Shown in pieces: positions 19,587 to 57,581 of a stretch of DNA of 64,000 nt; position 1 is the first letter of the stretch, and each line of letters starts with the position of its first letter. The position numbers were made by a program, and so were the translations under genes. The notes under the pieces were generated by a model. It ran no database searches and was not told the DNA's origin. It was given only the letters and a program-made list of their open reading frames with translations. Origin of the DNA: an uncultured Candidatus Saccharibacteria bacterium (GTDB lineage Bacteria > Patescibacteriota > Minisyncoccia > Phycocordibacterales > PALSA-1337); the NCBI GenBank assembly GCA_964558375.1, contig CAZLCD010000003.1, forward strand, positions 155-64,154, read 5' to 3'.

Positions 19587-20363
19587 ATGAACAAGAACCG
19601 CCACTCATTCACCCTTGCAACCATAGTCTCTGCCGGAGAATTACTTTTAAAAGAAAGAGATAAAAATTTCACCACCTCCTCAAAAGAAGGTGACTATCGC
19701 AATCTAGTTACCTCGGTAGATATTATTGTTGATGACTTTATAAAAAAGTCTATAAAATCTTCTTTTCCAGATGACCAAATATATTCCGAAGAATCGACGG
19801 AGAACGTGGCAACTTTAAATTCTTTCTGGTCTATTGACCCTATCGATGGAACTTCAAACTTTGCTAGAGGCATTCCTCATTTTGCTGTATGTCTTGCTTA
19901 TATAGAAAATGGCGCGGCGGTGTCTGGAGCTGTCTATAATCCTGTCACTAAAGAGCTTTATAGTTTTGAAAAAGGCAAAGGGGCCAAGCTCAATGGAAAT
20001 AAAATTGAAGTATCTAAAGTTAATCTTTTAAAAGAAGCCTATGTTTTATTGCATATCGGTCGCAAAGAATCTCTTAGGGATTGGGGTTTGAATCTACAAA
20101 GAAAGTTTTTGGGTGAAGCAAAGAAAACTATAAACCTCGGTTCATCTGCGCTTGATCTATGCTTTGTGGCTTCAGGAAAAGTCGATGCTACTATATACGG
20201 AACTCTCACCACTCTAGACTGCGCATCAGCTATTGGTATTGTTCGTGAGGCTTTGGGTGAGGTTTATGATTCTTCTGGACAGATGATCAAGCTTGATAAA
20301 AATCCACAGAAGATTTTTGCTACTTCAAATAAGGACTTATTTGATCAAATAGTTAAGCTTTAG
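19587..20363 (+). CDS. suhB: inositol monophosphatase family protein (SuhB/CysQ-like)
   Basis: WSIDPIDGTSNFARGIPHFAVCLA (DPIDGT motif) and downstream GSSALDLCFVASGKVDA (WDxAAG-like). Confidence 0.8.
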   Translation: MNKNRHSFTLATIVSAGELLLKERDKNFTTSSKEGDYRNLVTSVDIIVDDFIKKSIKSSFPDDQIYSEESTENVATLNSFWSIDPIDGTSNFARGIPHFAVCLAYIENGAAVSGAVYNPVTKELYSFEKGKGAKLNGNKIEVSKVNLLKEAYVLLHIGRKESLRDWGLNLQRKFLGEAKKTINLGSSALDLCFVASGKVDATIYGTLTTLDCASAIGIVREALGEVYDSSGQMIKLDKNPQKIFATSNKDLFDQIVKL

Positions 20364-36818: not shown

Positions 36819-37579
36819 TTACTGTAAAGAATCATCTTTTCCTAAAAACAGCCACTGTAATTTTTGAGGACGATCAAATAACTCCTCTGTTTAAAACTGG
36901 AAAATATTCTTCAATAGTTGCTGTGTCATACAAGAAGATGGATATTCCAAAGTTTGTTATGTACTCAAAACCAACTTTGTTAATAGATTTAACTAGAACC
37001 GAAGATGATATAATGGCAGGGTTTAATGATACTACTCGTAATGAAATACGAAAGACATTCAAGGATAATAGACTTAAGTTTGTAATAAAAGATTCTCCAG
37101 ACAAAGAATCCTATGAGATGTATAGAGAATTTGAATATTCTCAAGGAAGAGCCCCTGTAAGTATGAATGTTCTAAAGGAATCATTCTTTCTAGGTATTTC
37201 ACTCGACGATAAGTTAATTTCTGGTATATATGTGACTAAGAGTGATCCATATCTAAGAATTAGATCAATCTTCTCTAAGAGATTGAAGGTGGAAGATAAA
37301 GAAATATATAAACTAATAGCATATTCAACAAGAAGATTGATATGGGAAGCTTGTTCTTGGGGAAAGAAAGAGGGATATATTTCTCTCGATATGGCCTCTG
37401 TAAATATAAACAATCCAAAGACTGAAAGCATCGCTAGATTTAAGATGTCTTTTGGTAAAGATCTTGTAGATGAATATACTTATATATATAAATCTCCATT
37501 ATTTTCTTTTCTAGAGAAAATGGTTAGAATTAAGCTTCTCTTGAGAAAAGCTATATTCAAAATCAGAGAACTCTTTTAA
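36815..37579 (+). CDS. FemAB-family-like GNAT-fold transferase (aminoacyl-tRNA-dependent transferase-like)
   Basis: TTRNEIRKTFKDNRLKFVIK resembles the FemAB KTR.NIRKAEK.GV block. SIARFKMSFGKDLVDEYTY resembles the FemAB ..RFK..FGG block. Only 254 aa, so a single-domain version. Confidence 0.4.
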   Translation: MITVKNHLFLKTATVIFEDDQITPLFKTGKYSSIVAVSYKKMDIPKFVMYSKPTLLIDLTRTEDDIMAGFNDTTRNEIRKTFKDNRLKFVIKDSPDKESYEMYREFEYSQGRAPVSMNVLKESFFLGISLDDKLISGIYVTKSDPYLRIRSIFSKRLKVEDKEIYKLIAYSTRRLIWEACSWGKKEGYISLDMASVNINNPKTESIARFKMSFGKDLVDEYTYIYKSPLFSFLEKMVRIKLLLRKAIFKIRELF

Positions 37580-38701: not shown

Positions 38702-40132
38702 ATGCTTACTGTAATCGGAAATATCAGAATAAATTCCCTCTCACATCTTGAACACTTTAAGAATTCATTAAAATCTTTTGATGGAGCGAGTGATAACTGG
38801 CTAATAAATATCCGTGGAACTTTCCGTGATGAAGCAATTACTTTCCTAAAGAGTGAGTTAGGTAATAAACTAGTACCCTTTAAACTACTGGATGAATCTA
38901 GAGGGTGGATGGTTAATTCCCTTGAAATGCTCAAGGAGGCTAAGTATGACTATGTTTTAGTTTGGAATGAAGATCATCTAAACATTGCATCAGCAAAAGA
39001 TTTGGTTGATGTAGTTTCAGATATGAAAAAGGTAAAAGCTGACTACCTCTGCTATAGTTGGTGGCTTCTGGGAAAGTCTAGAGAAGCTTTTGATAAGTTG
39101 GGAAATAAAATAGGGTTTAAAAAAGAAAAATACATTAGTCACTTAAAACTAGATCAAGATAAGTGGAAAATGATACGAGATACTGGATATCCATATTTCA
39201 TAATATCCATGTGTGGAATTTTTAGAAAAGAATTTCTTCAGTCTATGTGGAAAAAAGACCAAAGAAGATTGCCGTTTTTCTTCAAAAAGATGGTATTCAA
39301 ATTCTTTGGATTGTTCACTAAGCTTAAAATTATGTCTCCTTATGGACACAAGGAGTTGTTTGAGAAGATAAATAGATTTGTATTTAGAAACAAGATTCGT
39401 AAATATCCGACGTATCTTCCTTTTGAAATGGAAAAGGGTCCAGAGAGAGTAGATATGTTACCTCTAAACTTTGCCTTCTCTAACAAAGAAATATTTGCTT
39501 GTATTGACGATAATGTGAATATGGAAGGATACTCATTGAGTGATAGAGGGTTGTATAAAAATTCAAAGAACAATAGACCTATAAAGGAACACCTAGACAC
39601 CATACTTTCAGAGATAAGAACTGTTCTTTCTAAGGTAGATGAAAAACAGGTTGATATGTTTGTTAAGTATATACTTTCTGCAAGAAGAATTGTTGCTTCT
39701 GGGGCGGGAAGAGTTGGAATGGCTGTGAAGGGTTTTGTTATGAGACTAAAGCATATGGGACTTGATGCATATATTCTAGGTGACGCTAACGTTCCCTCGA
39801 TAAAGCCACAAGATCTTTTCTTGGTGTGTTCTGGATCTGGTGAGACTCAGACAATATATGAACTAACTTTAATTGCTCAGAAAAATCAAACACCAATCGC
39901 TCTTGTAACAGGAAATCCTGAATCTCGCATGGGAAAGATTGCTAATACAATAGTTGAGATTAAAGCCCCTTCAAAAGTTAAAAAGGTTGATAACTTTGTA
40001 TCAATACAACCTATGACAACTCTAAACGAACAATCCCTAGCTATATTTTTTGATGCAATAGTTTTGAAGTTGATGGATGAACTGAACGAAACACACGAGA
40101 CTATGTGGGAGAGACATTCTAATTTGGAATAA
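38702..40132 (+). CDS. two-domain protein: uncharacterised N-terminal domain (~300 aa) plus C-terminal SIS (sugar-isomerase) domain
   Basis: C-terminal SIS motifs RIVASGAGRVGMAVKGFVMRLKHMG…LFLVCSGSGETQTIYEL…ALVTGNPESRMGKIANTIVEI, as in GmhA/KpsF/PHI-type phosphosugar isomerases. Confidence 0.6.
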   Translation: MLTVIGNIRINSLSHLEHFKNSLKSFDGASDNWLINIRGTFRDEAITFLKSELGNKLVPFKLLDESRGWMVNSLEMLKEAKYDYVLVWNEDHLNIASAKDLVDVVSDMKKVKADYLCYSWWLLGKSREAFDKLGNKIGFKKEKYISHLKLDQDKWKMIRDTGYPYFIISMCGIFRKEFLQSMWKKDQRRLPFFFKKMVFKFFGLFTKLKIMSPYGHKELFEKINRFVFRNKIRKYPTYLPFEMEKGPERVDMLPLNFAFSNKEIFACIDDNVNMEGYSLSDRGLYKNSKNNRPIKEHLDTILSEIRTVLSKVDEKQVDMFVKYILSARRIVASGAGRVGMAVKGFVMRLKHMGLDAYILGDANVPSIKPQDLFLVCSGSGETQTIYELTLIAQKNQTPIALVTGNPESRMGKIANTIVEIKAPSKVKKVDNFVSIQPMTTLNEQSLAIFFDAIVLKLMDELNETHETMWERHSNLE

Positions 40133-40133
40133 T

Positions 40134-40826
40134 ATGAAGAAGAATATAAAAACTAAAAAGAATAATACTTATGGACTAGCTGCATCTCTAGTATGTGCAG
40201 ATATGTTGAATATAAGAGGAGAGATAGAGAAACTTGAAAGAGGTGGAGTAGAATATATCCACTTTGACGTAATGGATAATCAATTTGTACCAAGATTCGG
40301 ACTTCATCCAGAAATTCTTCAATCAATAAAGAAAATAACTAAGATTCCTGTAGATGTTCATCTAATGGTTGATGATCCAGAGAATGCAATAAAGGTATTT
40401 GCAGACGCTGGAGCAGATATTATAGTAGTTCATGAAGAATCAACAGCTCAACTTCATAGACTAATAAAACTAATAAAAGCTACTGGAAAGAAAGCTGGAG
40501 TTGCTCTAAATCCTGCTACAAGCCTATCAACCCTAGACTATATTCTAAACGATATAGATCTTGTAATGCTAATGGCTATTAATCCTGGAATACTAGGTCA
40601 TAAATTGATTCCTGAAATGATGGACAAGATATCTGCGTTAAAGCTTAAACTTAGAAATTATCCCAATATGATAATAGAAATTGATGGAGGGGTAACACCT
40701 GAAAGTGCTAAAGAAATGGTTAAAAGAGGAGCAAATCTGCTAGTTTGTGGTACTTCAACTATATTTAAACCAGAGGGTGATGTTGATGTAAAGATAAAGG
40801 AATTGAAGAAAATTCTTGATAAATAG
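40134..40826 (+). CDS. rpe: ribulose-phosphate 3-epimerase family protein
   Basis: LAASLVCADMLNIRGEI…YIHFDVMDNQFVPRFGLHP…DVHLMV…MAINPGILGHKLIP…IEIDGGV…CGTSTIF follows the Rpe signature (SILSAD…HxDVMDGxFVPN…DVHLMV…NPGFGGQ…VDGG…GSAIF) throughout. Confidence 0.8.
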   Translation: MKKNIKTKKNNTYGLAASLVCADMLNIRGEIEKLERGGVEYIHFDVMDNQFVPRFGLHPEILQSIKKITKIPVDVHLMVDDPENAIKVFADAGADIIVVHEESTAQLHRLIKLIKATGKKAGVALNPATSLSTLDYILNDIDLVMLMAINPGILGHKLIPEMMDKISALKLKLRNYPNMIIEIDGGVTPESAKEMVKRGANLLVCGTSTIFKPEGDVDVKIKELKKILDK

Positions 40827-40850
40827 CAATAGAAAGAGTAATGTAAACAC

Positions 40851-42056
40851 ATGAAAGTCTTAATCCCGATAGATGAGACAAAGTTCCATTTCGGTGAACT
40901 AACTAAACATACAAACCCTGGTCTAATTCGTGTTGGAAAGAAGCCAATAATTTCATATATTATAGAATCATATCCAAAAGATACTGAGTTCATTTTAGCC
41001 CTAGACTACAAAAAAGATCATATAAAAGATTTCCTAACTCTCGTATATCCTAAACAAAGTTTCAAGATAATCTCGCTATCAGAAATAGATTCTTTTTCAA
41101 AAGAACCTTTTCTATATCATCCAACAAACTTAATTAGAGATATTAAAGCTCTACATAAAGCACGTAAGAATACTTATGATAAGTTTGATAATCTTGATAA
41201 GGTAGATGAGTCACTCTTCTTCTTTGAAGATTTCGCTATAAAATTCTTTGCGGATGGTAGAAAAATAAAGAGTCGTGTGCAGAGAGGGAAGATGTTGGGG
41301 AATCTGGTGCCAAAAACTCTACAGGTAAAAAATAATTTCTATAAATACGCATATATAAAAGGAGATACATATTCTGATGTAGCTACTCCACATAATTTCT
41401 CACAATTCCTGCACTGGGCAAAGGTAAAACTATGGAAGCCGAAGAAACACCTTTCAGAAAAAGAATTCAATAGTGTCTGTTTTGATTTCTATCAAACAAA
41501 GACAAAGGAAAGAATTGCTAAGTTTCTAGATTCTCATAATATTTCAGATTCAGAAATGATAATAAATGGAGAGAAGATTCCATCTATTGAAACTCTGCTA
41601 TCTCAAATTGATTTTGGTCATATTTCATCAGGAATCCAGACACAATTTCATGGAGATCTGATTCTTGAAAACATTCTTCTAGATAAGAAAGAATATACAC
41701 TTCTAGATTGGAGACAAGATTTTGGAGGAGTATTGCATGCTGGAGATATGTACTACGATCTAGCTAAACTTTATCATAATCTAGTTGTTAACCATGACAT
41801 AATAAGTAAGGATAGGTTTGTTATAGACGTTAAGAAGAACAGAGTTATATGTTCAATAGAAAGAAAACCTCATCTCGTTGTATGTGAGAAAACTTTTGAA
41901 GAATTTGTAATATCTCAGAAACTAGACTTAAGAAAGATAAAAATACTAAGAGCTATAATATGGCTAAATATGTCTCCATTACACCATCATCCATTCAGTC
42001 TTTTTCTTTACTACTTCGGGAAGTATAATCTTTGGAAAGCCGTTAATGAAAAATAA
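40851..42056 (+). CDS. fusion protein: degenerate sugar-phosphate nucleotidyltransferase-like N-domain plus APH/choline-kinase-like C-domain (LicC-LicA-like architecture)
   Basis: N-terminus VLIPIDETKFHFGELTKHTNPGLIRVGKKPIISYIIESYPKDTEF is a clear paralogue of the standalone nucleotidyltransferase at 42580 but lacks the G-x-G-(T/S)-R loop. C-terminus FHGDLILENILLDKKEYTLLDWRQDFGG is a kinase catalytic loop. Confidence 0.55.
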   Translation: MKVLIPIDETKFHFGELTKHTNPGLIRVGKKPIISYIIESYPKDTEFILALDYKKDHIKDFLTLVYPKQSFKIISLSEIDSFSKEPFLYHPTNLIRDIKALHKARKNTYDKFDNLDKVDESLFFFEDFAIKFFADGRKIKSRVQRGKMLGNLVPKTLQVKNNFYKYAYIKGDTYSDVATPHNFSQFLHWAKVKLWKPKKHLSEKEFNSVCFDFYQTKTKERIAKFLDSHNISDSEMIINGEKIPSIETLLSQIDFGHISSGIQTQFHGDLILENILLDKKEYTLLDWRQDFGGVLHAGDMYYDLAKLYHNLVVNHDIISKDRFVIDVKKNRVICSIERKPHLVVCEKTFEEFVISQKLDLRKIKILRAIIWLNMSPLHHHPFSLFLYYFGKYNLWKAVNEK

Positions 42057-42578
42057 ATGAAAAAAAAGATAATAAAAAACTTAATATTAGATGTTGACGG
42101 AGTCTTCACTGATGGTCAGTTTCACTATACCACAGAAGGCAAGACTGCAAAGATATTTGGTCCAGATGATAACGATGGTCTAGCTCTAATAAGACCATAT
42201 CTTAATATAGTTGCTGTAACAGGTGACAAGAAGGGGTTTGAGATCACAAAGAAGAGAATTGATGATATGAAAATTCCTCTTTTTCAAGTCAGTACTTTTG
42301 AAAGAATACATTGGATAAAGTCACAAGGATACAATCTTTCAGAAACTGTATACATGGGAGATGGAATATTTGATGCTATGGTTTTTGATAAGGTTGGATA
42401 CAGTATTGCTCCAGCAAATGCATTCCCAGCAATAAAGAAATACGCTGATCATGTTACGAAACTTAGTGGAGGACATGGGGCTGTTGCTGAAGCTTGTCTG
42501 CATCTTCTAGAAAAGTTCTTTAAGAAAGTAGATATGCTTAATTTGAAAATACAGGAAGGAGAGTGGGGAAATAAATAA
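42057..42578 (+). CDS. HAD-superfamily IIIA phosphatase, KdsC-like (sugar-acid/sugar phosphate phosphatase)
   Basis: LILDVDGVFTDGQFHYTTEG (DxDG motif I), VTGDKK (motif II region), YMGDGIFDAMVFDKVG (motif III), and GGHGAVAEACLHLL as in KdsC. 173 aa. Confidence 0.7.
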   Translation: MKKKIIKNLILDVDGVFTDGQFHYTTEGKTAKIFGPDDNDGLALIRPYLNIVAVTGDKKGFEITKKRIDDMKIPLFQVSTFERIHWIKSQGYNLSETVYMGDGIFDAMVFDKVGYSIAPANAFPAIKKYADHVTKLSGGHGAVAEACLHLLEKFFKKVDMLNLKIQEGEWGNK

Positions 42579-42579
42579 T

Positions 42580-43302
42580 ATGAAATATAAAGTACTCATC
42601 ACTACATCAGGTACAGGTTCACGTTTGGGAGAACTGACAAAGAATACAAATAAGGCTATGGTTTTAATTAATGGAAGACCAACCATTAAATATATCTTTG
42701 ATTCATATACAAAAGATACTACTTTCGTAATAACTCTAGGATTTCTAGGTGATCAAGTTAAGGATTTTCTTCTAAAGAGATATCCAGAATATAACTTTGA
42801 ATTTGCTGTTGTAGATAAGTATATAGGAGATGGAAGTAGTCTTCTATACTCAATGCTATGTGCTAAAGACTATCTACAATGTGCATTTATCTTCCATGCA
42901 TGTGACACTATCGTTACAGAAAAGATTCCAGAACCAATAGAGGATTGGGTAATTGGGTATGTCATAGATCCTGCAACAACTACGATGGATGTAAAACAAT
43001 ATCGAAGTCATGATGTTAAGGATGGGTATCTAGCTAAGGTTAATGACAAGGGGGTAATGAAGTTCAATTCAATTCATATTGGTATGACTGGAATATATAG
43101 CTACCAAACTTTTTGGAAAGTCGTAGAAGAGATGTATAAAAATGATCCAACGAATCAGGCTCTAGGAGATGTTCCTGTTATAGAAAAACTTATGGATTTA
43201 GGAGTAAGGTTTAAATGGATTCCTTTTAAAAATTGGCTTGATACTGGTAACCCCCAAGCACTTAAGGAGACTGAACAATTTATTATAAAAAGTAGTTTAT
43301 AA
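42580..43302 (+). CDS. sugar-phosphate nucleotidyltransferase (LicC/RmlA/GlmU N-domain family)
   Basis: VLITTSGTGSRLGELTKNTNKAMVLINGRPTIKYI matches the G-x-G-T-R-L…T…PK…L nucleotide-binding signature. Confidence 0.65.
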   Translation: MKYKVLITTSGTGSRLGELTKNTNKAMVLINGRPTIKYIFDSYTKDTTFVITLGFLGDQVKDFLLKRYPEYNFEFAVVDKYIGDGSSLLYSMLCAKDYLQCAFIFHACDTIVTEKIPEPIEDWVIGYVIDPATTTMDVKQYRSHDVKDGYLAKVNDKGVMKFNSIHIGMTGIYSYQTFWKVVEEMYKNDPTNQALGDVPVIEKLMDLGVRFKWIPFKNWLDTGNPQALKETEQFIIKSSL

Positions 43303-47657: not shown

Positions 47658-48902
47658 ATGAAGATCTTATTCCTATCAGATGATTTTCCTCCCAAAAGTT
47701 TTGGAGGTGCAGGTATTATAACCTTCAATCTTGCCAAAGGCCTTCTGGATGCTGGGCATAAGATGTATGCAATAACTACAACTCAGGATAGAAAGGAAGA
47801 GGGTTGGAGTAATGTTGAGGGTATAGAGGTATATAACTTGTACGTTGATTATGATGGTAGATTCGCTGCGTATGTTAGTCTATGTAATCCTAAGGTTATA
47901 TTAAAGGTAAAAAAACTAATAAAGGATATAAATCCAGAAGTAATTCATGCGCATAATATCCATCACTATCTTTCATACTACACCCTTGCTGTAGCTCGAT
48001 CATTCACTTCAAAAGTGTTCCTTACAACCCATGATGCTATGTCATTTAACTATGGTAAATTGGTGAATTTTTATGATAGAAAAAATCTTGAAGTTCAAAA
48101 AGATTTCTCATATAAAGTTGGGTTTTTACAAAACCTACGTACAGCCAAGAAAAGATACAATCCAATTCGTAATATAGCTATACGTTGGTATTTAAATACT
48201 TTTCCAAAGAAGATATTCGCTATATCTCACGAACTAAAGAAAGCGTTGAATCAAAATGGAATTAAAAATGTAGAAACAATACACTATGGTATTGAATCTA
48301 GAGACTGGAATGTATCAGAAGAAGAGAAGAAAACATTCAGTACAAAACTTGGACTAGATACCAAGAAAATTGTGTTTTTTGGTGGAAGACTAAGTGAATT
48401 TAAAGGAGGAAAGATTATGATAGATACAATGAAAGAGTTGTCTGAGAAGGATAGAGATATTGTTCTACTTATTGCAGGTACTCTAAATGACTATTCAAAA
48501 TACTTATTAAACTATGCTGAAGAAATCGGAGTGATGAACAATATATTTTTTACTGGTTGGTTGTCGAGAGATGATATGAAAAAAGCATACGCAGTATGTG
48601 ATGTCTGTGTTACTCCATCAATATATTTTGATGCTTTTAATCTTTTTAATATAGAAGCCGGGTCGGCATCTAAACCAGTTGTTGGTACATGTTTTGGTGG
48701 TACTCCTGAAATTGTAATCGATAAAGTTACAGGACTTATTGTTAACCCTAATAATATAGAGATATTAAGTAATGCTATATATACTATAGTTGAAGATAAA
48801 GAATATACTACGAAACTAGGAAAGGCAGGGAATGAGAGGGTTAAAGAATACTTTACTATGGATAGGTATGTTATAGAGACCCTGTCTTGGTATCAGAAAT
48901 AG
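47658..48902 (+). CDS. glycosyltransferase family 4
   Basis: N-terminus MKILFLSDDFPPKSFGGAGIITFNLAKGL. C-terminus PSIYFDAFNLFNIEAGSASKPVVGTCFGGTPEIVIDKVTGLIV. Confidence 0.75.
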   Translation: MKILFLSDDFPPKSFGGAGIITFNLAKGLLDAGHKMYAITTTQDRKEEGWSNVEGIEVYNLYVDYDGRFAAYVSLCNPKVILKVKKLIKDINPEVIHAHNIHHYLSYYTLAVARSFTSKVFLTTHDAMSFNYGKLVNFYDRKNLEVQKDFSYKVGFLQNLRTAKKRYNPIRNIAIRWYLNTFPKKIFAISHELKKALNQNGIKNVETIHYGIESRDWNVSEEEKKTFSTKLGLDTKKIVFFGGRLSEFKGGKIMIDTMKELSEKDRDIVLLIAGTLNDYSKYLLNYAEEIGVMNNIFFTGWLSRDDMKKAYAVCDVCVTPSIYFDAFNLFNIEAGSASKPVVGTCFGGTPEIVIDKVTGLIVNPNNIEILSNAIYTIVEDKEYTTKLGKAGNERVKEYFTMDRYVIETLSWYQK

Positions 48903-50187
48903 TTTGCTGTTGTTTTCGATCTTTCTTAACTATATAGAACCAGATAAACACAGATATTGTAGCTGTAGCTACTAGTAATGTCATTCTTCCGTATACCACA
49001 CTGGTCACTCCTAATTTCTGGATGAAAGAGAAGATGAATATTGTTGATAGGAGACTAGGTATATTCCATAGGTATAACATCTTCTTAGGTAGATAATTTA
49101 CTTTTGAATTTATAGCAGGACTTAACATGGTCAAAGGCATAGATATTAGTATTGTAAGGGCATATATTCTAGATATTCCTACAGATGAAAGATATGCTGG
49201 GAAGAATATCTTAAATATTAGGGGAGCGAATATAATGTAAAGTATTACTATGCCTATAGAGATAATGAATATCATAAATATTCTCTTATATAGAAGTTTG
49301 CCTATATCAGCGATTGGACGTGCTGCCATTTTAGGCATTGCTAGAGTCGGTATATTTCTAAACAGACTTACCATTTGGGTTACTGGCGCTATAGCAAAAC
49401 TATATATTGCTAGTTCTATAGATCCTAAGTAATGAAAGATTAGAATTGAATCTAAAGATCCTATTAAAGTTGCAATAACATCGATAAAGCTCGAATGCTT
49501 ACCCATAGGTATTGTTGCAGGATCAATCCTATCATTAGGGGGGTATCTCTTTATAGTTCTAAAGAAAAATAAAATTCTAATCAGTGTCCATGAGGATAAA
49601 TATACAACTAATATTATGTATATGTTACTTGTTACAAATACAGTAGCTATCATTAATGAACTAGCAATCAATTGACTCAAAGTTATATATCTCGAAGATA
49701 TATCAAATATTTTCTTTCCCTGAAGATAGTCTTGGTAGAGATGGAAAGAATCCATAAATGGAATGAATAGTGAGGCTATTAGGAATACAATAGCTAGCTC
49801 AATGTTTCCATTTGAGTAGTAATAGATTGATACTCCAACACTGACAATTGATCCAACTACACCCCAAGTTATTTTTGTCTTCAATCCTTTTATCAACGAT
49901 CCTTCCAAACCTCTCGCTACGGCCTGAGATATCATGGAACCCATCCCTGTCAGAGTTGTTATTGAAAGTATCCCAAGTATCGATAGGAAGTATTTGTATA
50001 CTCCATATGTATGTGCAGGTATATGGCTAGCAAACACTATGGCAGTCACAAATACCATTGCAGAAGCTGATATATTACTTATAGTAAGCCAAAAACCACC
50101 CCTCGCAAGGTATACCATATCTGTCTTAGTGTATTTCTCACTCGATCTCAATATTAAGTACGTTCTCTGTTTAAGGTGGTGGAACAT
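48871..50187 (-). CDS. wzx: polysaccharide/oligosaccharide flippase (Wzx-like, MOP superfamily)
   Basis: 438 aa, about 12-14 predicted TM helices, basic N-terminal cytoplasmic segment, overall layout of Polysacc_synt proteins. Membership of the glycan island supports the call. Confidence 0.55.
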   Translation of the reverse strand: MFHHLKQRTYLILRSSEKYTKTDMVYLARGGFWLTISNISASAMVFVTAIVFASHIPAHTYGVYKYFLSILGILSITTLTGMGSMISQAVARGLEGSLIKGLKTKITWGVVGSIVSVGVSIYYYSNGNIELAIVFLIASLFIPFMDSFHLYQDYLQGKKIFDISSRYITLSQLIASSLMIATVFVTSNIYIILVVYLSSWTLIRILFFFRTIKRYPPNDRIDPATIPMGKHSSFIDVIATLIGSLDSILIFHYLGSIELAIYSFAIAPVTQMVSLFRNIPTLAMPKMAARPIADIGKLLYKRIFMIFIISIGIVILYIIFAPLIFKIFFPAYLSSVGISRIYALTILISMPLTMLSPAINSKVNYLPKKMLYLWNIPSLLSTIFIFSFIQKLGVTSVVYGRMTLLVATATISVFIWFYIVKKDRKQQQTISDTKTGSL

Positions 50188-50289: not shown

Positions 50290-52581
50290 ATGAAAAATAC
50301 CACAAATACAATTATTAAATACAGCATATTTACAATCATTTTTATAATTTCTTTCCTCCCCCTTTACGTCGCCAACCCATTATTCTTTCCGTTCATCACT
50401 GGCAAGGCTTTCGTCTTTAGAATACTAGTAGAACTAGCTTTCGCTCTGTGGCTCATACTTCTTATACGTGAAAAGGGAACTACGGTCGCTGGTACTGAGA
50501 GAAGTGTGGCACCAAGGATAAATGCTATCACTATAGCCATAACAGCTTTCGTTTCAATTATCTTTGTCGCCGACCTCCTAGGTCTAAATGTCTTGCGAAG
50601 CTTCTGGTCAAACTTCGAGAGAATGGAAGGATGGATAACCCTAGTACATCTTTGGGGATATTTCATTGTTCTATCTAGTATTTTTGGCTCCAGTTACTTT
50701 TCGGGCTCCACTGAAAATTCCGAAGCTCATAAAAATTGGCATCGATTCTTCAATGTGGTGCTTATCGCTGGCTTTATCACGGCTATGTACGGCCTATTCC
50801 AATTCTTCGGTTGGGCAGACATTCATCAGGGCTCTAGTCGTGTAGATGCCTCACTAGGAAACTCAGCTTATATGGCGGTTTATATGATCATAAACGCATT
50901 TCTAGCAGGGTATATGGCTTTCGATGCTTATATAAAAAGGTTAAAGTTTTCACTGCTATTCTTTATCTACTCTATCCTTGCCATTTTCTTCTCCTTCATA
51001 ATGTTCCAGACAGCAACTAGAGGAACTATCCTAGGTTGGGTTGCAGCTATCCTCGTTTCTCTGGCTATTTATGCGGTTTTTGGTAAAAATAAAAAGGGCG
51101 GCGTTTCCACAAAATCAAGACTTATAGCTTCAGGTGCAATAGTTCTGGTTTTGCTTATCGGAACCCTCTTCTATTTTAATAGAGATGCGCAGTGGATAAA
51201 GAACAATCAGGTATTAGGACGTATCGCAACCATATCTATTTCCGATACCAAGACTCAAGCTCGAGGATTCATCTGGCCTATGGCACTCAAAGGTGTATTT
51301 GAAAGTCCAAAAACCGCGATCATAGGTGTAGGTCAAGAAAACTTCAATTATATTTTTAACAAAAACTATGATCCGAAGATGTGGGCACATGAACAATGGT
51401 TCGATAGGGCACACAGTGTCTTTATCGACTGGCTTGTAGCTGGAGGGCTCATAGGATTTATATCGTACCTTGCTCTCTATCTCTTTGCTCTTATCTATAT
51501 TATCAAAAGTCACTTGCATATTGGTCAAAAATCAATACTCATAGGACTTTTGGTTGGTTATGGAATACATAACATTTTCGTTTTCGACAATCAGACTAGC
51601 TATATAATGTTCTTCATAGTTTTGGCTTTCATACATTCTTTTGTGCCTGGTAAGGTTCCAAAGTTCTTACACGATACCAAGTCTCATGTTTCAGAGGATT
51701 ATATAACAGTAAGAGATTATATATTTGTGCCAGCTATCATTATCCTTTTGGGTTGTTCACTATATTTTATCAATATTCGTCCAATACAGGCTAATACCGG
51801 ACTTATAGCCGCTCTACGTTCTTGTTCAGATGCCAAAACCTTGTCTACAAAGACTTTTGAAAAAGTATTTGCTCTAGATCAAACCGTAGCCAATCAAGAA
51901 ACCTTAGAACAGCTCTATTCTTGCTCTGGCAATGTACTACGTAGCCAATTGCCACAAGAAAAGAAAATCGAATTCTACAATTTAACTAAGGCAGAAATAG
52001 AAAAACAGGCCTCAACTACTCCAAACGACGCTCGACTATATATTCTCGCTGGAAACTTCTTTGATTCTATAGGAGATTGGTCCACAGGTACTGCATATTT
52101 AGAAAAAGCTCATAAACTCTCTCCAACCAAGCAAAGCATAGCTTCAGAGCTCGCGCTCAACTACTTAAATATAGGGAAAACAAAAGAATCCATAGAAATA
52201 ATGGAGCAGGCTTACAATTCTGATACAGAGAATTACAATGCTCGAACTTCATATATCGTAACCCTGATCTATACAGGAGAAGAAAAGAAAGCTATAGAAC
52301 TATTTGGTAAAAATCTAGAATATTTCGAAAATGAGCAAGTGATCAATGCCTATGTGACTTTGAAACAATACGATAAAGCGATAGCTCTATACAAATCAAT
52401 CATGTTAAAGAATCCAAATGAACAGAAGAATTATTCTGCCCTAGCTTCTATCTACCTTATGAATGGTCAAAAGGCAAAAGCAATTGAGACTATAAAAATC
52501 GCTGGGGATAAGTTTCCAGAAATCAAAAAGCAAGCAGATGCGATAATCAAGCAGATCGAGGAGGGGAAGGTAGGGAATTAA
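50290..52581 (+). CDS. O-antigen ligase/Wzy_C-domain membrane protein with C-terminal TPR repeats (candidate pilin O-oligosaccharyltransferase, PglL/TfpO-like)
   Basis: N-terminal ~450 aa polytopic. Wzy_C-like blocks …MFQTATRGTILGWVAAIL… and …HEQWFDRAHSVFIDWLVAGGLIGF… (compare the aHN.yL..l.E.G..G block of O-antigen ligases). Large periplasmic loop. C-terminal ~250 aa of TPR-like helical repeats. Confidence 0.6.
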   Translation: MKNTTNTIIKYSIFTIIFIISFLPLYVANPLFFPFITGKAFVFRILVELAFALWLILLIREKGTTVAGTERSVAPRINAITIAITAFVSIIFVADLLGLNVLRSFWSNFERMEGWITLVHLWGYFIVLSSIFGSSYFSGSTENSEAHKNWHRFFNVVLIAGFITAMYGLFQFFGWADIHQGSSRVDASLGNSAYMAVYMIINAFLAGYMAFDAYIKRLKFSLLFFIYSILAIFFSFIMFQTATRGTILGWVAAILVSLAIYAVFGKNKKGGVSTKSRLIASGAIVLVLLIGTLFYFNRDAQWIKNNQVLGRIATISISDTKTQARGFIWPMALKGVFESPKTAIIGVGQENFNYIFNKNYDPKMWAHEQWFDRAHSVFIDWLVAGGLIGFISYLALYLFALIYIIKSHLHIGQKSILIGLLVGYGIHNIFVFDNQTSYIMFFIVLAFIHSFVPGKVPKFLHDTKSHVSEDYITVRDYIFVPAIIILLGCSLYFINIRPIQANTGLIAALRSCSDAKTLSTKTFEKVFALDQTVANQETLEQLYSCSGNVLRSQLPQEKKIEFYNLTKAEIEKQASTTPNDARLYILAGNFFDSIGDWSTGTAYLEKAHKLSPTKQSIASELALNYLNIGKTKESIEIMEQAYNSDTENYNARTSYIVTLIYTGEEKKAIELFGKNLEYFENEQVINAYVTLKQYDKAIALYKSIMLKNPNEQKNYSALASIYLMNGQKAKAIETIKIAGDKFPEIKKQADAIIKQIEEGKVGN

Positions 52582-52682
52582 AATATAGTTATCCACATAC
52601 CCCCTTGAACTTATTTGCCTGAGCTTTGCTATACTTATGGCATAAGTTTAATTATTAAGTTTTTATAAGTTAATTTATTCGT

Positions 52683-53144
52683 ATGAAGAAAACATATTTA
52701 GAAAAAGGTTTTACATTGATTGAATTGCTAGTGGTTATTGCTATTATCGGTATTTTGTCATCAGTGGTGTTGGCGAGTTTGAACACAGCTCGAAATAAGG
52801 GTGCAGATGCTGCAGTAAAAGCAAACTTGTCTGGTATTAGATCACAGGCAGAGTTGATTTATGATACTGCTGTTCCAAATTCTTACGCAACTATCTGTAC
52901 AGATACAAATGTTGTTAATGCAATAAATGCTGCAAAGACAGCTGCTGGAGTTTCATCTGCTACCAATGTTACTTATGGTACAGCTGGTGGTGCAGCTACA
53001 GCTACTTGTCATGCTAACGGTGCAACCGGATGGGCTGTAGAAGTTCCATTAAAGTCCGCAGGATTCTTCTGTGTAAACAATTCTGGTACATCTTCAACAA
53101 CAGCTGCAAGTACTCTTGGTGCTAGTGAAACAGATTGTAACTAG
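52683..53144 (+). CDS. pilA: type IV pilin (probable major pilin; class III signal peptide)
   Basis: MKKTYLEKG|FTLIELLVVIAIIGILSSVV shows the prepilin leader, cleavage G, F+1, E+5 and a hydrophobic helix. C-terminal region has paired Cys and is Ala/Thr/Ser/Gly-rich. Followed by its own intrinsic terminator. Confidence 0.75.
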   Translation: MKKTYLEKGFTLIELLVVIAIIGILSSVVLASLNTARNKGADAAVKANLSGIRSQAELIYDTAVPNSYATICTDTNVVNAINAAKTAAGVSSATNVTYGTAGGAATATCHANGATGWAVEVPLKSAGFFCVNNSGTSSTTAASTLGASETDCN

Positions 53145-53170
53145 TGTATATTGTTTGGTTGGTTTGATTT

Positions 53171-53203
53171 AAAAAAACTACGTAGAATATACGTGGTTTT
53201 TTT
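53171..53203. terminator. bidirectional intrinsic terminator AAAAAAA-CTACGTA-gaata-TACGTGG-TTTTTTT
   Basis: 7-bp stem (one G-U), 5-nt loop, flanked by A7 and T7, 27 nt after the pilA stop. Confidence 0.55.
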
Positions 53204-53253
53204 GTTGACTTATTAGATTGTTATATAATTATATTAAGTTTATAATATATAAT

Positions 53254-53742
53254 ATGAAAAAAATAAATAAAGGTTTTACATTAATAGAATTGCTAGTAGT
53301 TATTGCTATAATAGGAATATTATCATCTGTTGTATTATCGAGTCTAAGTACTGCTCGTGTTAAAGGTAGGTCTGCAGCACTTAAGGCAGAAATGGATAGT
53401 TTTAAGAAAACAGCTCAACTTTTCTATGATGATAATAACAATTCATATACAGGAATGTTTTCAAATGATCCTACTATTTTAGCACTGGTAGCTACAACAA
53501 CCACAGATGTTGCAATTCAGAATATATTAATATCTCTAGAACAGAAGTCAGGTAATTTTGCTCTGTATGGTCTTGTGTCTGATAATGCTTACGCACTATA
53601 TACAAGGTTACCAAGTGCAACCAATCTTGACAGTCTTGATCCTGTAGATATTTGGTGTATTGACAGTGAGGGAAAGTCTGGAAATCCTAGTTCAGTAGCT
53701 GTAGATCAATTTACCACTACTCCAGCCAGTGTTTGTTGGTAA
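53254..53742 (+). CDS. type IV pilin
   Basis: MKKINKG|FTLIELLVVIAIIGILSSVVLSSL, with a C-terminal disulfide loop (C…C-W end). The track start 53218 adds 12 unlikely residues. Confidence 0.7.
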   Translation: MKKINKGFTLIELLVVIAIIGILSSVVLSSLSTARVKGRSAALKAEMDSFKKTAQLFYDDNNNSYTGMFSNDPTILALVATTTTDVAIQNILISLEQKSGNFALYGLVSDNAYALYTRLPSATNLDSLDPVDIWCIDSEGKSGNPSSVAVDQFTTTPASVCW

Positions 53743-53771
53743 AGGATAAACAATTCTCCAATTACATTACA

Positions 53772-53797
53772 AAATCCTTCGAAAGAGAGGGATTTTT
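53772..53797 (+). terminator. weak hairpin plus T-tract (AAATCC-N12-GGATTTTT) after the second pilin gene
   Basis: 6-bp stem with a large loop followed by T5. Judged a weaker terminator than the one after pilA. Confidence 0.3.
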
Positions 53798-53885
53798 GGT
53801 ATTAGGTGTAATCTTTACCAAATCTTTATTATTTTTTAATCTTTCCCCCAATCCCCAACTCTCTATACACCAAAGCATTTTTTAC

Positions 53886-53894
53886 TGCTATAAT
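53886..53894 (+). promoter_or_regulatory. extended -10 TGCTATAAT, 6 nt upstream of ATG 53901 (leaderless configuration)
   Basis: Perfect TGnTATAAT. No room for a Shine-Dalgarno sequence before the start codon. Confidence 0.4.
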
Positions 53895-53900
53895 TAGCCT

Positions 53901-54410
53901 ATGAAAAATACTAAAAAAGGATTTACTTTAATTGAGCTTATGGTTTCGATTGCGATTATAGGAATTTTGACTGCCATTATCACCACCAACTTTACTTCAA
54001 GCAAAGCCAAATCAAGAGATGCAAAGAGAGTTTCAGATCTTGCGCAGATACAGCTGGCGTTGTCTCTATATTTTGATAAATTTAATTCTTATCCAGGTGT
54101 AGGTACTGGTCTTGAAGCTGGTGGTGTAACAAGCGGGGCAACTTCTCCTTACAACAGTATTCCTTTTAGTAACTACATTGCTGTGATACCAAAAGATCCA
54201 AATGGAACTGTGTATTCGTATGTGGTAGATGGATCTAAAACAGACTATATTTTGAGGGCCACTTTAGAAACCAACTCCACAGCTCTTAGTGATGATATTG
54301 ATAATACAAATAGACCATCGTGGGCAACAACTGTTTCCTTTGGTGGAGGTAGTGGAATACCTTGCGATGATACTTCTACACCGCTTTACTATTGCGTATC
54401 CCCAAGATAA
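53901..54410 (+). CDS. type IV pilin/pseudopilin
   Basis: MKNTKKG|FTLIELMVSIAIIGILTAII prepilin N-terminus, with a C-terminal Cys pair. Confidence 0.7.
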   Translation: MKNTKKGFTLIELMVSIAIIGILTAIITTNFTSSKAKSRDAKRVSDLAQIQLALSLYFDKFNSYPGVGTGLEAGGVTSGATSPYNSIPFSNYIAVIPKDPNGTVYSYVVDGSKTDYILRATLETNSTALSDDIDNTNRPSWATTVSFGGGSGIPCDDTSTPLYYCVSPR

Positions 54411-55186
54411 TGCCAAGTATATTTTTAATTTTTTCATTTGCACTCGGAACCATCATAGGAAGCTTTTTAAATGTTGTAGCTTTTAGATACAACACCGGCA
54501 TGACCTTGAACGGTCGATCAAAATGCTTTTCTTGTGGACATGGTTTGCATTGGCATGAACTTATCCCTATCTTTAGTTTCTTTTTGCAAAAAGGTAAATG
54601 TAAAAAGTGCAAAAGTAAAATCTCTTGGCAATATCCACTGATCGAGGTTACAGCCGGACTTATATTCCTGATGATCTTTTTTTATTTTCCACCAGTATCA
54701 GTACAAGCAAGTGTTGATACTATCTTCTATCTACTCATAACTTGTATACTTCTAGTAATAACGGTTTACGATATAAAACATAAGATCATTCCAGATCCAC
54801 TAGTCTATACTTTTGCGATTGTAGCTTTTGCCAAACTTTTCATCTCTCCAGAATTTTCTTTTGTCATACCAGAGACCATGGCTATGCTAGCAGGACCGAT
54901 ACTGGCCCTACCTTTCGCTTTGATGTGGCTTCTTTCAAAGGGAACTTGGATGGGCTTTGGGGATGCCAAGCTTGTTTTGGGTATAGGCTTTGTTTTGGGA
55001 CTTATGCCGGGACTTTCGGCTATAGTACTAGCTTTTTGGATAGGGGCAGTGGCTAGTGTTTTGTGGATGTATATAGTTATGAGAAAGTTTAAGTCTCATT
55101 ATGAAATACCTTTTGGGCCGTATCTTATCCTTGGAATGTATCTAGTTTTATTTTTTGGAATAAATGTTATTGATTTTACAATATGA
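54392..55186 (+). CDS. pilD: prepilin peptidase (A24 family, PilD/TadV-like)
   Basis: N-terminal zinc-binding CFSCGH…CKKCKS. Catalytic Asp contexts DIKHKIIPDP and GFGDAKL. About 7 TM helices. Alternative start ATG 54410 (MPSIF…) overlaps the upstream stop as TAATG. Confidence 0.85.
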   Translation: MRIPKIMPSIFLIFSFALGTIIGSFLNVVAFRYNTGMTLNGRSKCFSCGHGLHWHELIPIFSFFLQKGKCKKCKSKISWQYPLIEVTAGLIFLMIFFYFPPVSVQASVDTIFYLLITCILLVITVYDIKHKIIPDPLVYTFAIVAFAKLFISPEFSFVIPETMAMLAGPILALPFALMWLLSKGTWMGFGDAKLVLGIGFVLGLMPGLSAIVLAFWIGAVASVLWMYIVMRKFKSHYEIPFGPYLILGMYLVLFFGINVIDFTI

Positions 55187-55803
55187 GAAAAAATAGATTT
55201 TTAAAATTTAAAGGCGGCTTCACTATCATAGAGCTTATGATCTGTGTTTTTATCTTTGCTATGATGACGACTTTGCTTCTTGCAAAATACGGTTCTTTCA
55301 ATACAAATGTCTTACTTACAAACCTCGCTTATGATGTGGCTCTTACCATACGTAATGCTCAATCATACGGGCTCAATGTAAAGAGTTCACCCAATGAAGA
55401 AAATAAATTCAACTATGCCTACGGAGTACATATTGCATTGGGTACAGAATTTATCTTTTTTGTGGATACAACTCCCAATGGTCTATATGATGCTAATCTA
55501 GGAGAAAAAATTACTTCTACAACTATCAAAAGGGGAATGAGTATAGGTAGAATATGTCCTGGTAGTGCAATATGTTCTTCTTTAAATAGTTATACAGGAG
55601 CTGATAGTATGGATATAACTTATAAAAGACCAAATCCAGAAGCTATTATAAAGTCAACTACTGGCGGTGTGACGATTACTCAAACTTCTTTTTCTTCTTC
55701 ATTTGCTCTTAGAAATAGTTTAAGTACCACATTTCCTGATCTACTTAACTCTATAGATATAGTGGTTAATAAAAATGGCGCAATTTCCATTAAGAAAAAA
55801 TAA
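55183..55803 (+). CDS. pseudopilin/minor pilin (prepilin-type N-terminus)
   Basis: …KFKGG|FTIIELMICVFIFAMMTTLLLA. Start overlaps the pilD stop (ATGA coupling). Confidence 0.6.
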   Translation: MRKNRFLKFKGGFTIIELMICVFIFAMMTTLLLAKYGSFNTNVLLTNLAYDVALTIRNAQSYGLNVKSSPNEENKFNYAYGVHIALGTEFIFFVDTTPNGLYDANLGEKITSTTIKRGMSIGRICPGSAICSSLNSYTGADSMDITYKRPNPEAIIKSTTGGVTITQTSFSSSFALRNSLSTTFPDLLNSIDIVVNKNGAISIKKK

Positions 55804-55804
55804 T

Positions 55805-56473
55805 ATGAAATATATTTCTCAAAAAAAAGGATTTACTTTGGTGGAAATGATAGTATCATTGGCTGTCTTTATGGTTGTTGCAGTTATTGCTGTCGGTGCT
55901 CTTTTAAAAATAACCGATGCTAATAGGAAGTCTCAGGCTTTAAAAACTGCTATCAACAATATAAATTATGCTTTAGATGCTATGTCTCGAGAGATGAGAA
56001 CGGGGAAGAATATGGTGCTTTATACTAATCCACTGGGTACTCCATATGAACTTCACGGTGGCTCAAATCAGTATGCTGATGGTAATAATACAGGTCTAGA
56101 TGATGAATGGGTAATGGTTTTTGAATCTACAAAAAGTCCTGCTGGGGGAACTTGTAAATTGAAAATTGGGTATAAATTTGCATCATATACAACTAATAAT
56201 GATACCTCTAACAAACACACTATTCAAAAAGCTGAGCAGCCTTTAACAGATTCTGATTGTGATGGTCAATTGGGTGATACTCTTGGTTCTGGACCGGAAT
56301 ACGACTTCGTCGACATCCTCTCTCCTGATGTTCAAATCACCAATTCCATTGTCGATGTGGATACTAGCGGAGGTCATGGCAAGGCTTCTTTCTGGTTCAA
56401 GGGCTACGCAGGTAAAACTTCGAAGGATAGAACAGACTTCGAAATACAAACAACGGTTTCTCAAAGAAATTAA
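55805..56473 (+). CDS. pseudopilin/minor pilin
   Basis: MKYISQKKG|FTLVEMIVSLAVFMVVAVIA. Start chosen at ATG 55805, directly after the upstream stop, rather than the overlapping 55775. Confidence 0.6.
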   Translation: MKYISQKKGFTLVEMIVSLAVFMVVAVIAVGALLKITDANRKSQALKTAINNINYALDAMSREMRTGKNMVLYTNPLGTPYELHGGSNQYADGNNTGLDDEWVMVFESTKSPAGGTCKLKIGYKFASYTTNNDTSNKHTIQKAEQPLTDSDCDGQLGDTLGSGPEYDFVDILSPDVQITNSIVDVDTSGGHGKASFWFKGYAGKTSKDRTDFEIQTTVSQRN

Positions 56474-56480
56474 AAAATTT

Positions 56481-57044
56481 ATGTCACTATTTAACTTAAA
56501 AAATAATTCGCAAAATAAAGGTCTTAGAGGCTTCACTTTGGTCGAGACCTTAGTGGCGATTGCTATACTCATGATAGCTATAGCCGGACCGCTTACTATT
56601 GCGAGCAAGGGTCTCACTGCTGCGACTTATGCCAAGAATCAAGTGATAGCATCTTTCCTTGCGCAGGATTTGATCGAATATGTCAAAAGCCAGGAGGTCA
56701 ATCTGGGATTCGATAACTTTCTCTCGCAGTTTGATGAGGGAAGTATAGCCTGTACCTTTGAAGCAGATGAGTGTAATATCGACACTACAGATAGTGCCGC
56801 GAATCTCGATAGAGACAATGACGGACAACTCTACTTTTCTCCTGCCGGGGGTTATAGACCATCCGCTAGTGGCGCCACAATATCTCCTTTCCGTAGAATA
56901 TTTTTTATAAGCAATCCAGACGGCTCTACCCTCACAGATCTAAATACCGATCAGATAAAGATCACGGTAAAGATTTTTTGGAGTACAGGAATACTCGACA
57001 ATGAGCTGGTTTTCGAAAGTTATTTATTTGATGTATTGAAATAG
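56481..57044 (+). CDS. pseudopilin/minor pilin
   Basis: MSLFNLKNNSQNKGLRG|FTLVETLVAIAILMIAIAGPL. The track ORF 56259 starts inside the upstream gene, so the internal ATG 56481 is used. Confidence 0.6.
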   Translation: MSLFNLKNNSQNKGLRGFTLVETLVAIAILMIAIAGPLTIASKGLTAATYAKNQVIASFLAQDLIEYVKSQEVNLGFDNFLSQFDEGSIACTFEADECNIDTTDSAANLDRDNDGQLYFSPAGGYRPSASGATISPFRRIFFISNPDGSTLTDLNTDQIKITVKIFWSTGILDNELVFESYLFDVLK

Positions 57045-57047
57045 AGT

Positions 57048-57581
57048 ATGAAAATGATTAAATTTAATTTAAAAACAATGATGAATAAAGGCTATACACT
57101 TCTTTTTGCGGTTCTAGTTTCATCTATTGTCTTGTCTATCGGTATTTCTATTTTGACAATTAGTAAAAAAGAAGTTTTGCTCGCTTCATCCGCTAGAGAC
57201 TCCATGCTCGCCTTCTATTCTGCAGATAGTGGAATGGAATGTGTGAGATATTGGGATGTGAGAGGTACCATTTCTTCAAGTACCGCATCCGCACCTCAAT
57301 CTTGCGCTGATACTGCTGATCTTCAGCTCGATAGTGCTGGCTTTCACGAATATACTTCAAAGGTCTGGACTGCTTCTTCCTCTCTCAAGCTTGGTAATAG
57401 TGGACAATGTGCTGTAGTTACAGTTCAGAAGACCTATGGTGCCGACGCTGCTCTGGGACGACAGACTATAAAGACAACTATAGACTCCAGAGGCTACAAT
57501 ATAGGCTGGGACAATGCTACTTCCAAATGCAATACTCCAAGTCCTCGCAGAGTAGAACGTGGCTTGAGATTGGTCTATTAA
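57048..57581 (+). CDS. minor pilin-like protein (degenerate prepilin N-terminus, no Glu+5)
   Basis: …MMNKG|YTLLFAVLVSSIVLSIGISIL. Hydrophobic N-terminal helix after a Gly, but Glu5 is replaced, as in some PilX/GspK-type minor pilins. Confidence 0.4.
   Translation: MKMIKFNLKTMMNKGYTLLFAVLVSSIVLSIGISILTISKKEVLLASSARDSMLAFYSADSGMECVRYWDVRGTISSSTASAPQSCADTADLQLDSAGFHEYTSKVWTASSSLKLGNSGQCAVVTVQKTYGADAALGRQTIKTTIDSRGYNIGWDNATSKCNTPSPRRVERGLRLVY

Follow-up and report, generated by a model that had tools for sequence, protein, structure and literature searches.

We examined a 64,000-nucleotide stretch of contig CAZLCD010000003.1 (assembly GCA_964558375.1), referred to here as the window, around a plus-strand gene at 50290-52581 that encodes a glycan ligase with a C-terminal tetratricopeptide repeat (TPR) domain. 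The gene stands between a surface-glycan biosynthesis island on its upstream side and a cluster of type IV pilin genes on its downstream side. A first-pass annotation of the same DNA had interpreted this arrangement as a dedicated pilin O-glycosylation locus; the gene neighbourhoods of relatives point instead to a general surface-glycan ligase. The features of the locus are the following.

21452-48902, unstranded: variable surface-glycan biosynthesis island of ~27 kb (Pfam/NCBIfam, hydrophobicity scan)
48871-50187, minus strand: Wzx-type (MOP, Polysacc_synt) flippase, divergent from the ligase (PF01943 E=3.6e-11, 10 hydrophobic segments)
50290-52581, plus strand: Wzy_C/WaaL-fold glycan ligase, 763 amino acids, with C-terminal TPR (Pfam, predicted fold)
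51766-52581, plus strand: predicted extracytoplasmic TPR domain of the ligase, residues ~493-763 (TPR Pfam/NCBIfam, Foldseek, Cys pair, 13th transmembrane helix)
52683-53144, plus strand: major prepilin PilA1, 153 amino acids (N_methyl E=4.9e-8)
53170-53205, unstranded: bidirectional intrinsic-terminator-like hairpin after pilA1 (RNA fold, sequence)
53254-53742, plus strand: prepilin PilA2, 162 amino acids (N_methyl E=3.3e-9, start codon confirmed)
53901-54410, plus strand: prepilin PilA3, GspG-like, 169 amino acids (N_methyl and T2SSG; NCBIfam GspG E=3.3e-17, below cut-off)
54410-55186, plus strand: prepilin peptidase PilD, 258 amino acids (A24_N_bact E=9.7e-29 and Peptidase_A24)
55183-55803, plus strand: minor pilin (N_methyl)
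55775-56473, plus strand: minor pilin (N_methyl)
56481-57044, plus strand: minor pilin, PilV-like (N_methyl; NCBIfam PilV E=4.6e-10, below cut-off)
57048-57581, plus strand: fourth minor pilin, GspK/PilX-like N-terminus (pilin-like hydrophobic N-terminus KGYTLLF)

Fold, catalytic residues and topology of the ligase

The ligase matched the Pfam family Wzy_C (PF04932) with E=4.5e-15 and 56.2 bits (cut-off 31.7) over residues 230-394, spanning profile positions 2-149 of 149, and TPR_19 and other Pfam TPR models matched residues ~567-750. A scan of NCBIfam assigned no family to the membrane domain, and all of its TPR matches were sub-threshold. Structures were modelled with AlphaFold2 from an alignment of 28 homologues, giving a predicted local distance difference test score (pLDDT) of 82.9 and a predicted template modelling score (pTM) of 0.79 for the full-length protein, and 82.4 and 0.87, respectively, for residues 1-505 alone. 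In a Foldseek search of the PDB the membrane domain had WaaL (7TPG) as its top match (E=3.1e-5, template modelling scores 0.52/0.62) and no significant match beyond WaaL, while the full-length model retrieved TPR proteins only, including OGT, SPY and consensus TPR. Profile and phmmer searches of PDB sequences with the ligase likewise gave TPR proteins only or no match. The first-pass annotation had placed an O-antigen-ligase-like protein with a C-terminal TPR domain and a large periplasmic loop at 50290-52581, and profile and predicted structure agree with it on each of these points.

The predicted fold is polytopic and WaaL-like, with 13 transmembrane helices (TM1 to TM13) across residues 2-492 and a large external loop before TM10. 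This conserved catalytic loop of 80 residues (297-376) faces outwards in the model and holds R325 and H375, while R244 lies between TM7 and TM8; all three residues are invariant in the alignment of 28 homologues. Functionally important residues have been described at R215, R288 and H338 of E. coli WaaL and at R224, R298 and H349 of PglL (PMC3643930). The contexts of H375 in the ligase (HSVFIDWLVAGGLIG) and of H338 in E. coli WaaL (HNEIIEAGSLKGLMG) both match H[NSQ]x9Gxx[GTY], a motif that 75 of the 80 family members carry, against 2% of shuffled sequences. The second Arg precedes the His by 50 residues in both proteins, and the context of R244 (QTATRGTIL) is similar to LTQTRATLL of WaaL. An hhalign comparison of the family profile with E. 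coli WaaL, although non-significant (E=0.058), paired R244 with R215. By profile, fold and Arg/Arg/His residues, the protein is a member of the Wzy_C/WaaL-fold superfamily.

With the N-terminus placed inside, loops on the inner side carry 12 Lys and Arg in 67 residues and those on the outer side 13 in 144. Because of this N-in topology and the extra 13th transmembrane helix, the TPR domain is predicted to lie outside the cell, which agrees with the side of the membrane proposed for it in the earlier reading. Cys512 and Cys545 at the base of the domain form an invariant pair in the homologue alignment and would fit an extracytoplasmic location. A large external TPR domain would most simply be a protein-binding module.

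Gene neighbourhood in relatives

More than 3,000 homologues of the ligase were found at E<1e-5, about 720-780 amino acids long (across the family, lengths are mostly 700-800) with the Wzy_C and TPR combination; their annotations go no further than "O-antigen ligase family protein" or "tetratricopeptide repeat protein". A search with the membrane domain returned 4,897 clusters (50% identity) at E<=1e-3 and 1,428 at E<=1e-30, and 411 GTDB species genomes encode a relative. Where a taxonomy was named, all homologues belonged to Patescibacteria/Paceibacterota. The source organism is a Patescibacterium, and the distribution of homologues is consistent with an organism without lipopolysaccharide (LPS), as had been supposed when LPS O-antigen was called an unlikely product of this genome.

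Synteny was sampled in 80 Paceibacteria loci of up to 10 kb on each side of the ligase homologue, with neighbours confirmed by Pfam. Downstream counts refer to the 64 loci with at least 3 kb of downstream sequence and upstream counts to the 62 loci with at least 3 kb upstream, and prepilins were sought with a motif detector that recovers five of the six prepilins in the window. Exporters of lipid-linked glycans were common: 54 of 62 loci encode one no more than four genes upstream of the ligase homologue, which bears out the proposed linkage to glycan genes. These exporters comprise 21 pairs of ABC-2 permease and Wzt-type ATPase, 14 Wzx orthologues, 7 of a second MOP type and 12 MsbA/PglK-like ABC proteins; orthologues of the window's own Wzx flippase stand directly upstream in 14-17 related loci. 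On the downstream side, MurB was found in 47 and SecA in 45 of the 64 loci. An alternative downstream order runs from a response regulator through a DedA(VTT)-PAP2 fusion to an MFS gene, the fusion occurring in 14 of the 80 loci (e.g. L013 and L004).

Linkage to pilin genes, which the first-pass annotation had named as a check in related genomes, did not recur. A prepilin lay directly downstream of the ligase homologue at a single locus of the 64, in a distant relative (L035), and a pilD homologue was near the ligase homologue in none of the 80. The next-closest homologues after the 91%-identical relative described below, P0003, P0004, P0007 and P0012 (61-65% identity), are followed by HisKA-MurB-SecA or by response regulator-DedA/PAP2, with no pilins. 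Small same-strand open reading frames (ORFs) between ligase and MurB were considered as hidden pilins or acceptors and rejected as spurious or unrelated, one being GtrA-like. Upstream of a 65% homologue lie two TagF-type Glyphos_transf genes together with NeuB and a CMP-transferase; the locus with TagF-like genes upstream is L085. In the sample, the family gene keeps its place at the border of a hypervariable glycan island, the route of export differing between loci (Wzx, ABC-2/Wzt or MsbA-like), and pilin linkage of the ligase is confined to the window lineage.

Two further observations were made among the relatives. At the P0012 locus (L090, 10330-12429) the DedA(VTT)-PAP2 gene is followed by a 699-residue fusion of GT2, PMT and PMT_4TMC domains, which by its domains would join a polyprenol-phosphate-sugar synthase to a GT-C enzyme of the protein O-mannosyltransferase type and is a second candidate protein-glycosylation enzyme. 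One metagenome-assembled genome, SMAG_U8183, carries two Wzy_C-TPR paralogues (L007 and L019), one in the response regulator/DedA-PAP2 and the other in the MurB-SecA context, both with an MsbA-like ABC gene upstream.

The relative P0002 (locus L081) has a ligase 91% identical to that of the window. Its downstream genes follow the window order (pilA1-3, pilD, four minor pilins, ligA and gatCA), and a full pilin cluster beside the ligase is common only to these two. Upstream, it encodes ABC2_membrane, ABC_tran with Wzt_C, methyltransferases, AsnB and a GT2, an ABC-transporter-dependent pathway without homology to the Wzx island of the window; nucleotide homology starts at 50348, 58 nucleotides inside the ligase ORF, with none to the left of that position. 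The presence of one near-identical enzyme beside two unrelated glycan pathways argues for a ligase that recognises the lipid carrier, and not for a repeat-unit-specific polymerase. Identities between the two loci are 99% for pilD, 97% for GatA, 96% for LigA, 91% for the ligase (96% in its catalytic loop) and 80-92% for the minor pilins, and 73%, 55% and 47% for PilA3, PilA2 and PilA1, respectively. The two PilA1 proteins have only the N-terminal ~40 residues in common; the Ser/Thr-rich tail is not kept, and the L081 orthologue ends in ...AMDAR. The heads of PilA1 and PilA2 have been replaced between window positions 52800-53850 and L081 positions 12540-14068, with pilD nearly unchanged. The glycan island and these pilin heads are two neighbouring surface-variation hotspots. 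Two loci of surface variation have come to lie side by side in this lineage, and the adjacency of ligase and pilin genes is no more than chance would give, as it does not recur in relatives. An ORF6N-domain gene (L081, 13717-13998) lies between pilA2 and pilA3 in the relative and is absent from the corresponding window interval, 53743-53900.

The glycan island and the pilin cluster of the window

A glycan-assembly island with a flippase had been proposed ahead of the ligase, and ~27 kb of such genes do lie beyond the flippase gene. Pfam and NCBIfam matches identify about 11 GT1/GT4 glycosyltransferases and one GT2, together with a GDP-mannose 4,6-dehydratase, epimerases, an AsnB-like amidotransferase, six methyltransferases, a deacetylase and a set of sugar-phosphate and nucleotidyl-transferases. 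The hydrophobicity scan found no second polytopic Wzy-like protein in the island, and an LCP-family ligase was not found in the window (1-64000). A GT4-family membrane protein at 10378-11505 (minus strand), the window's only PF00953 protein, was considered as an initiating phosphoglycosyltransferase and set aside; its score identifies it as MraY, and its neighbours are Mur ligase genes.

Several genes in and around the island are of separate interest. A set of five on the plus strand (38702-43302) begins with an HxlB-type 6-phospho-3-hexuloisomerase domain fused to a ~290-residue N-terminus without known family, and continues with a ribulose-phosphate 3-epimerase, an APH-like kinase without family, a KdsC-like HAD phosphatase and a sugar-1-phosphate nucleotidyltransferase; it looks like a route from pentose or hexulose phosphates to an unusual nucleotide-activated sugar for the island glycan. 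Two island proteins, 33825-34706 and 40851-42056 (plus strand), have only a weak similarity to APH phosphotransferases and no NCBIfam family, and the island or flanking ORFs at 36815-37579, 20353-21390 (minus strand) and 18797-19495 (minus strand) have no family match of any kind. A VirD4/TraD-like type IV coupling ATPase is encoded on the plus strand at 15854-17593, flanked by genes for a DUF4015 glycosyl hydrolase (14308-15471) and a GT4 glycosyltransferase (17616-18740). It matched T4SS-DNA_transf and TrwB_AAD_bind in Pfam and, below threshold, TraD/CD1115-like in NCBIfam; further conjugation genes were not recognised in its vicinity.

Downstream of the ligase, six N_methyl matches, marking the G-F/Y-T-L-x-E N-terminal motif of prepilins, and the A24_N_bact and Peptidase_A24 domains of PilD define a type IV pilus or pseudopilus cluster. 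The series of prepilin genes with pilD listed in the first-pass annotation was confirmed up to the last of them; the product of 57048-57581 is pilin-like only, lacking Glu5 and any Pfam or NCBIfam family match. No pilB, pilC or pilT gene was found in the 64-kb window. PilA1 has cysteines at positions 72, 109, 130 and 152 and a head with 24% Ser and Thr. Its C-terminus reads ...GTSSTTAASTLGASETDCN, with ETDCN as the last residues, and the Ser/Thr/Ala-rich segment ascribed to it is indeed present, inside the C-terminal Cys130-Cys152 loop. The bidirectional terminator reported after this gene was also recovered, as a hairpin of the form A7-stem8-loop5-stem8-T7 (-17.5 kcal/mol, z=-4.05, equalled by 1 of 200 shuffles), which a simple terminator scan did not pick up. 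An extended -10-like element, TGCTATACT, was read from the sequence ahead of pilA1 at 52627-52635. With a promoter-like element and a terminator of its own, pilA1 looks like a separate transcription unit.

Probable acceptor of the ligase and comparison with known systems

The linkage of the family to sugar-export and cell-wall genes, and not to pilins, makes a general surface-glycan ligase more likely than a pilus-dedicated one. We favour, with a probability of about 0.45, a conserved, donor-promiscuous ligase of undecaprenyl-diphosphate (Und-PP)-linked glycans, encoded at the constant border of a hypervariable surface-glycan island, with Ser, Thr or Tyr residues of secreted surface proteins as the probable acceptor; it would then be a general O-oligosaccharyltransferase of the kind of WsfB or PglL. 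We infer the Und-PP linkage of the donor and the relaxed donor specificity of the enzyme. Surface proteins would be the most plausible acceptors by analogy with WsfB of Paenibacillus alvei, an S-layer protein tyrosine O-oligosaccharyltransferase that combines Wzy_C and a C-terminal TPR domain in one polypeptide (PMC2943079). They are favoured because WsfB, the one characterised enzyme we could document with the architecture of the ligase, acts on an S-layer protein, and because an external TPR domain, which would hold the protein substrate, most simply binds protein. The TPR domains of two protein glycosyltransferases, OGT and SPY, also rank among the top structural matches of the full-length model. 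The TPR-fused ligase had been put forward as a novelty of the locus, but the fusion is not a new architecture, WsfB having it already. The neighbouring pilins may be among the substrates, although the locus is probably not one dedicated to pilin glycosylation.

Under this favoured reading, undecaprenyl phosphate (Und-P) would be the carrier on which cytoplasmic glycosyltransferases assemble a glycan rich in methyl groups, and Wzx would flip this glycan across the membrane, a step that an ABC transporter would perform by export in other strains. The Arg/His site of the ligase would bind Und-PP on the outer face, and the finished glycan would be transferred en bloc to a conserved extracytoplasmic acceptor with release of Und-PP. 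The DedA-PAP2 fusions that adjoin the ligase at 14 loci would suit recycling of this by-product: by the general roles of the two families, PAP2 would serve as Und-PP phosphatase and DedA would return Und-P across the membrane.

Several points weigh against a general ligase with a protein acceptor. The protein acceptor itself is suggested by analogy, and the correspondence with WaaL residues is a putative one that comes from motif, spacing and a weak hhalign alignment rather than from a residue-level structural alignment. The absence of PglL_A leaves no positive sequence signature for protein over lipid acceptors, and TPR domains also scaffold polysaccharide export, so that their presence is no proof of a protein substrate. 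An initiating phosphoglycosyltransferase of the Bac_transf/WecA type was not found in the window (1-64000). The teichoic-acid-like loci with TagF-type Glyphos_transf genes upstream in some relatives fit a TacL-like glycolipid ligase equally well.

This last point belongs to a serious alternative, less probable than the favoured reading: a lipid- or wall-anchoring ligase that places a polymer on a glycolipid, as TacL does, or on another non-protein envelope acceptor, giving an O-antigen- or teichoic-acid-like coat with the TPR domain as a scaffold. TacL is a monoderm Wzy_C enzyme that transfers Und-PP-linked teichoic acid to a glycolipid (PMC5727136). The TagF-type pair with NeuB and CMP-transferase upstream of the 65% homologue would suit such an enzyme, as would the ABC-2/Wzt export, typical of wall polymers, at many loci; the closest solved fold is that of WaaL, a lipid-acceptor ligase, and the conserved neighbour MurB is a cell-wall precursor gene, although the MurB-SecA linkage is possibly just conserved core gene order. 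Against it, TacL and WaaL have ~400 residues and no TPR domain, so that a lipid acceptor leaves the family-wide 270-residue external TPR domain unexplained, and WsfB, with the same architecture, acts on protein (PMC2943079).

The original proposal, a dedicated type IV pilin O-oligosaccharyltransferase that puts the island glycan on the adjacent major pilin, we consider unlikely. The ligase gene does lie directly upstream of pilA1 on the same strand, an arrangement kept in the 91% relative and echoed in the prepilin of L035, and pglL genes adjoin pilin genes in 21 of 31 cases (PMC3643930). Pilin adjacency is nonetheless missing in 63 of 64 related loci and in all homologues with 61-65% identity, and no single pilin approaches the ligase family in conservation and spread. 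The acceptor of TfpO-type enzymes is the C-terminal Ser of the pilin, as in P. aeruginosa 1244 and Acinetobacter. The 24% Ser and Thr of the PilA1 head counts in favour of this reading. PilA1 ends in Asn and its L081 orthologue in Arg, and the S/T-rich tail is not kept. Both the consistent pilin adjacency and the C-terminal Ser pilin of TfpO/PilO systems are lacking here. PglL_A (PF15864) and PglL_B motifs flanking Wzy_C separate PglL from WaaL (PMC3643930); the Pfam scan of the ligase found no PglL_A match at E<=0.01, and judged on this domain the enzyme appears to lie outside the PglL family. The apparent transcription of pilA1 as a unit of its own also speaks against a dedicated locus.

A Wzy-type polymerase of Wzx-flipped repeat units is highly improbable: some polymerases also fall under Pfam Wzy_C, the gene adjoins Wzx and the island has no second polytopic protein, but the enzyme carries the WaaL His motif, keeps 45-65% identity across species with unrelated glycan loci, unlike repeat-unit-specific polymerases, and is contradicted as a polymerase by its pairing with ABC-2/Wzt in 21 of 62 relatives and in the 91% orthologue, since such pathways complete polymerisation on the cytoplasmic side without a Wzy.

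The general surface-glycan ligase can be extended, tentatively, to a wider proposal: the Paceibacteria Wzy_C-TPR family might be the general protein O-oligosaccharyltransferase of these ultra-small episymbionts, its external TPR domain holding unfolded or flexible protein segments, with type IV pilins and other surface proteins receiving strain-specific glycans from a swappable island. If true, this would amount to O-antigen-like surface variation carried by glycoproteins in organisms that lack LPS, and it would give the Candidate Phyla Radiation (CPR) its first defined protein-glycosylation machinery. Patescibacteria live on the cells of their hosts, and it is believed that their surface determines host range and susceptibility to phages. 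The analysis points to one conserved ligase gene at the border of a hypervariable glycan island across hundreds of species of Paceibacteria, and identification of its acceptor would define how these organisms build a variable coat. Glycoengineering might also profit from a ligase that is naturally donor-promiscuous and brings its own acceptor-binding domain. Literature searches on O-antigen ligases in Patescibacteria/Parcubacteria returned nothing specific and no description of a conserved ligase at the edge of a swappable island; a paper on Saccharibacteria type IV pili only predicts pilin O-glycosylation, using GlycoPP. The locus further cautions that a single gene adjacency in a streamlined genome is poor ground for inferring a pilin-glycosylation system.

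Among characterised systems, the ligase resembles WsfB in uniting Wzy_C and a C-terminal TPR domain in one protein, a likeness that rests on the described architecture of WsfB, and in its monoderm host and position at the edge of a surface-glycan cluster. The WsfB cluster includes an asparagine-synthase homologue and a glycerophosphotransferase (review figure legend, PMC2943079), and the window island also has an AsnB-like gene; in the WsaB/WsaA system of Geobacillus stearothermophilus the TPR domain is on the adjacent protein WsaA. Unlike WsfB, the CPR family is fixed beside MurB-SecA or DedA-PAP2, and no S-layer-like gene was recognised in the window. With WaaL (PDB 7TPG/7TPJ; E. coli) it shares the Arg/Arg/His residues and the His motif, the role of a conserved enzyme serving hypervariable glycan loci and, apparently, the acceptance of glycans from both Wzx- and ABC-dependent routes; it differs in its 13th transmembrane helix and 270-residue external TPR domain, in an identity of only ~14-15%, and in being hosted by a Patescibacterium without lipid A-core. 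PglL, TfpO and PilO likewise combine Wzy_C with conserved Arg/Arg/His residues (PMC3643930) and, as we infer for the ligase, relaxed donor specificity, and the position beside pilA recalls TfpO/PilO in the window lineage only; unlike PglL of Neisseria and TfpO/PilO, the ligase has a monoderm-like host and is much longer through its large TPR domain. TacL is comparable as a Wzy_C enzyme of a monoderm, and teichoic-acid-type genes lie upstream in some relatives, but it has 397 residues, no TPR domain and a glycolipid acceptor, as against the 763 residues with TPR domain of the window ligase.

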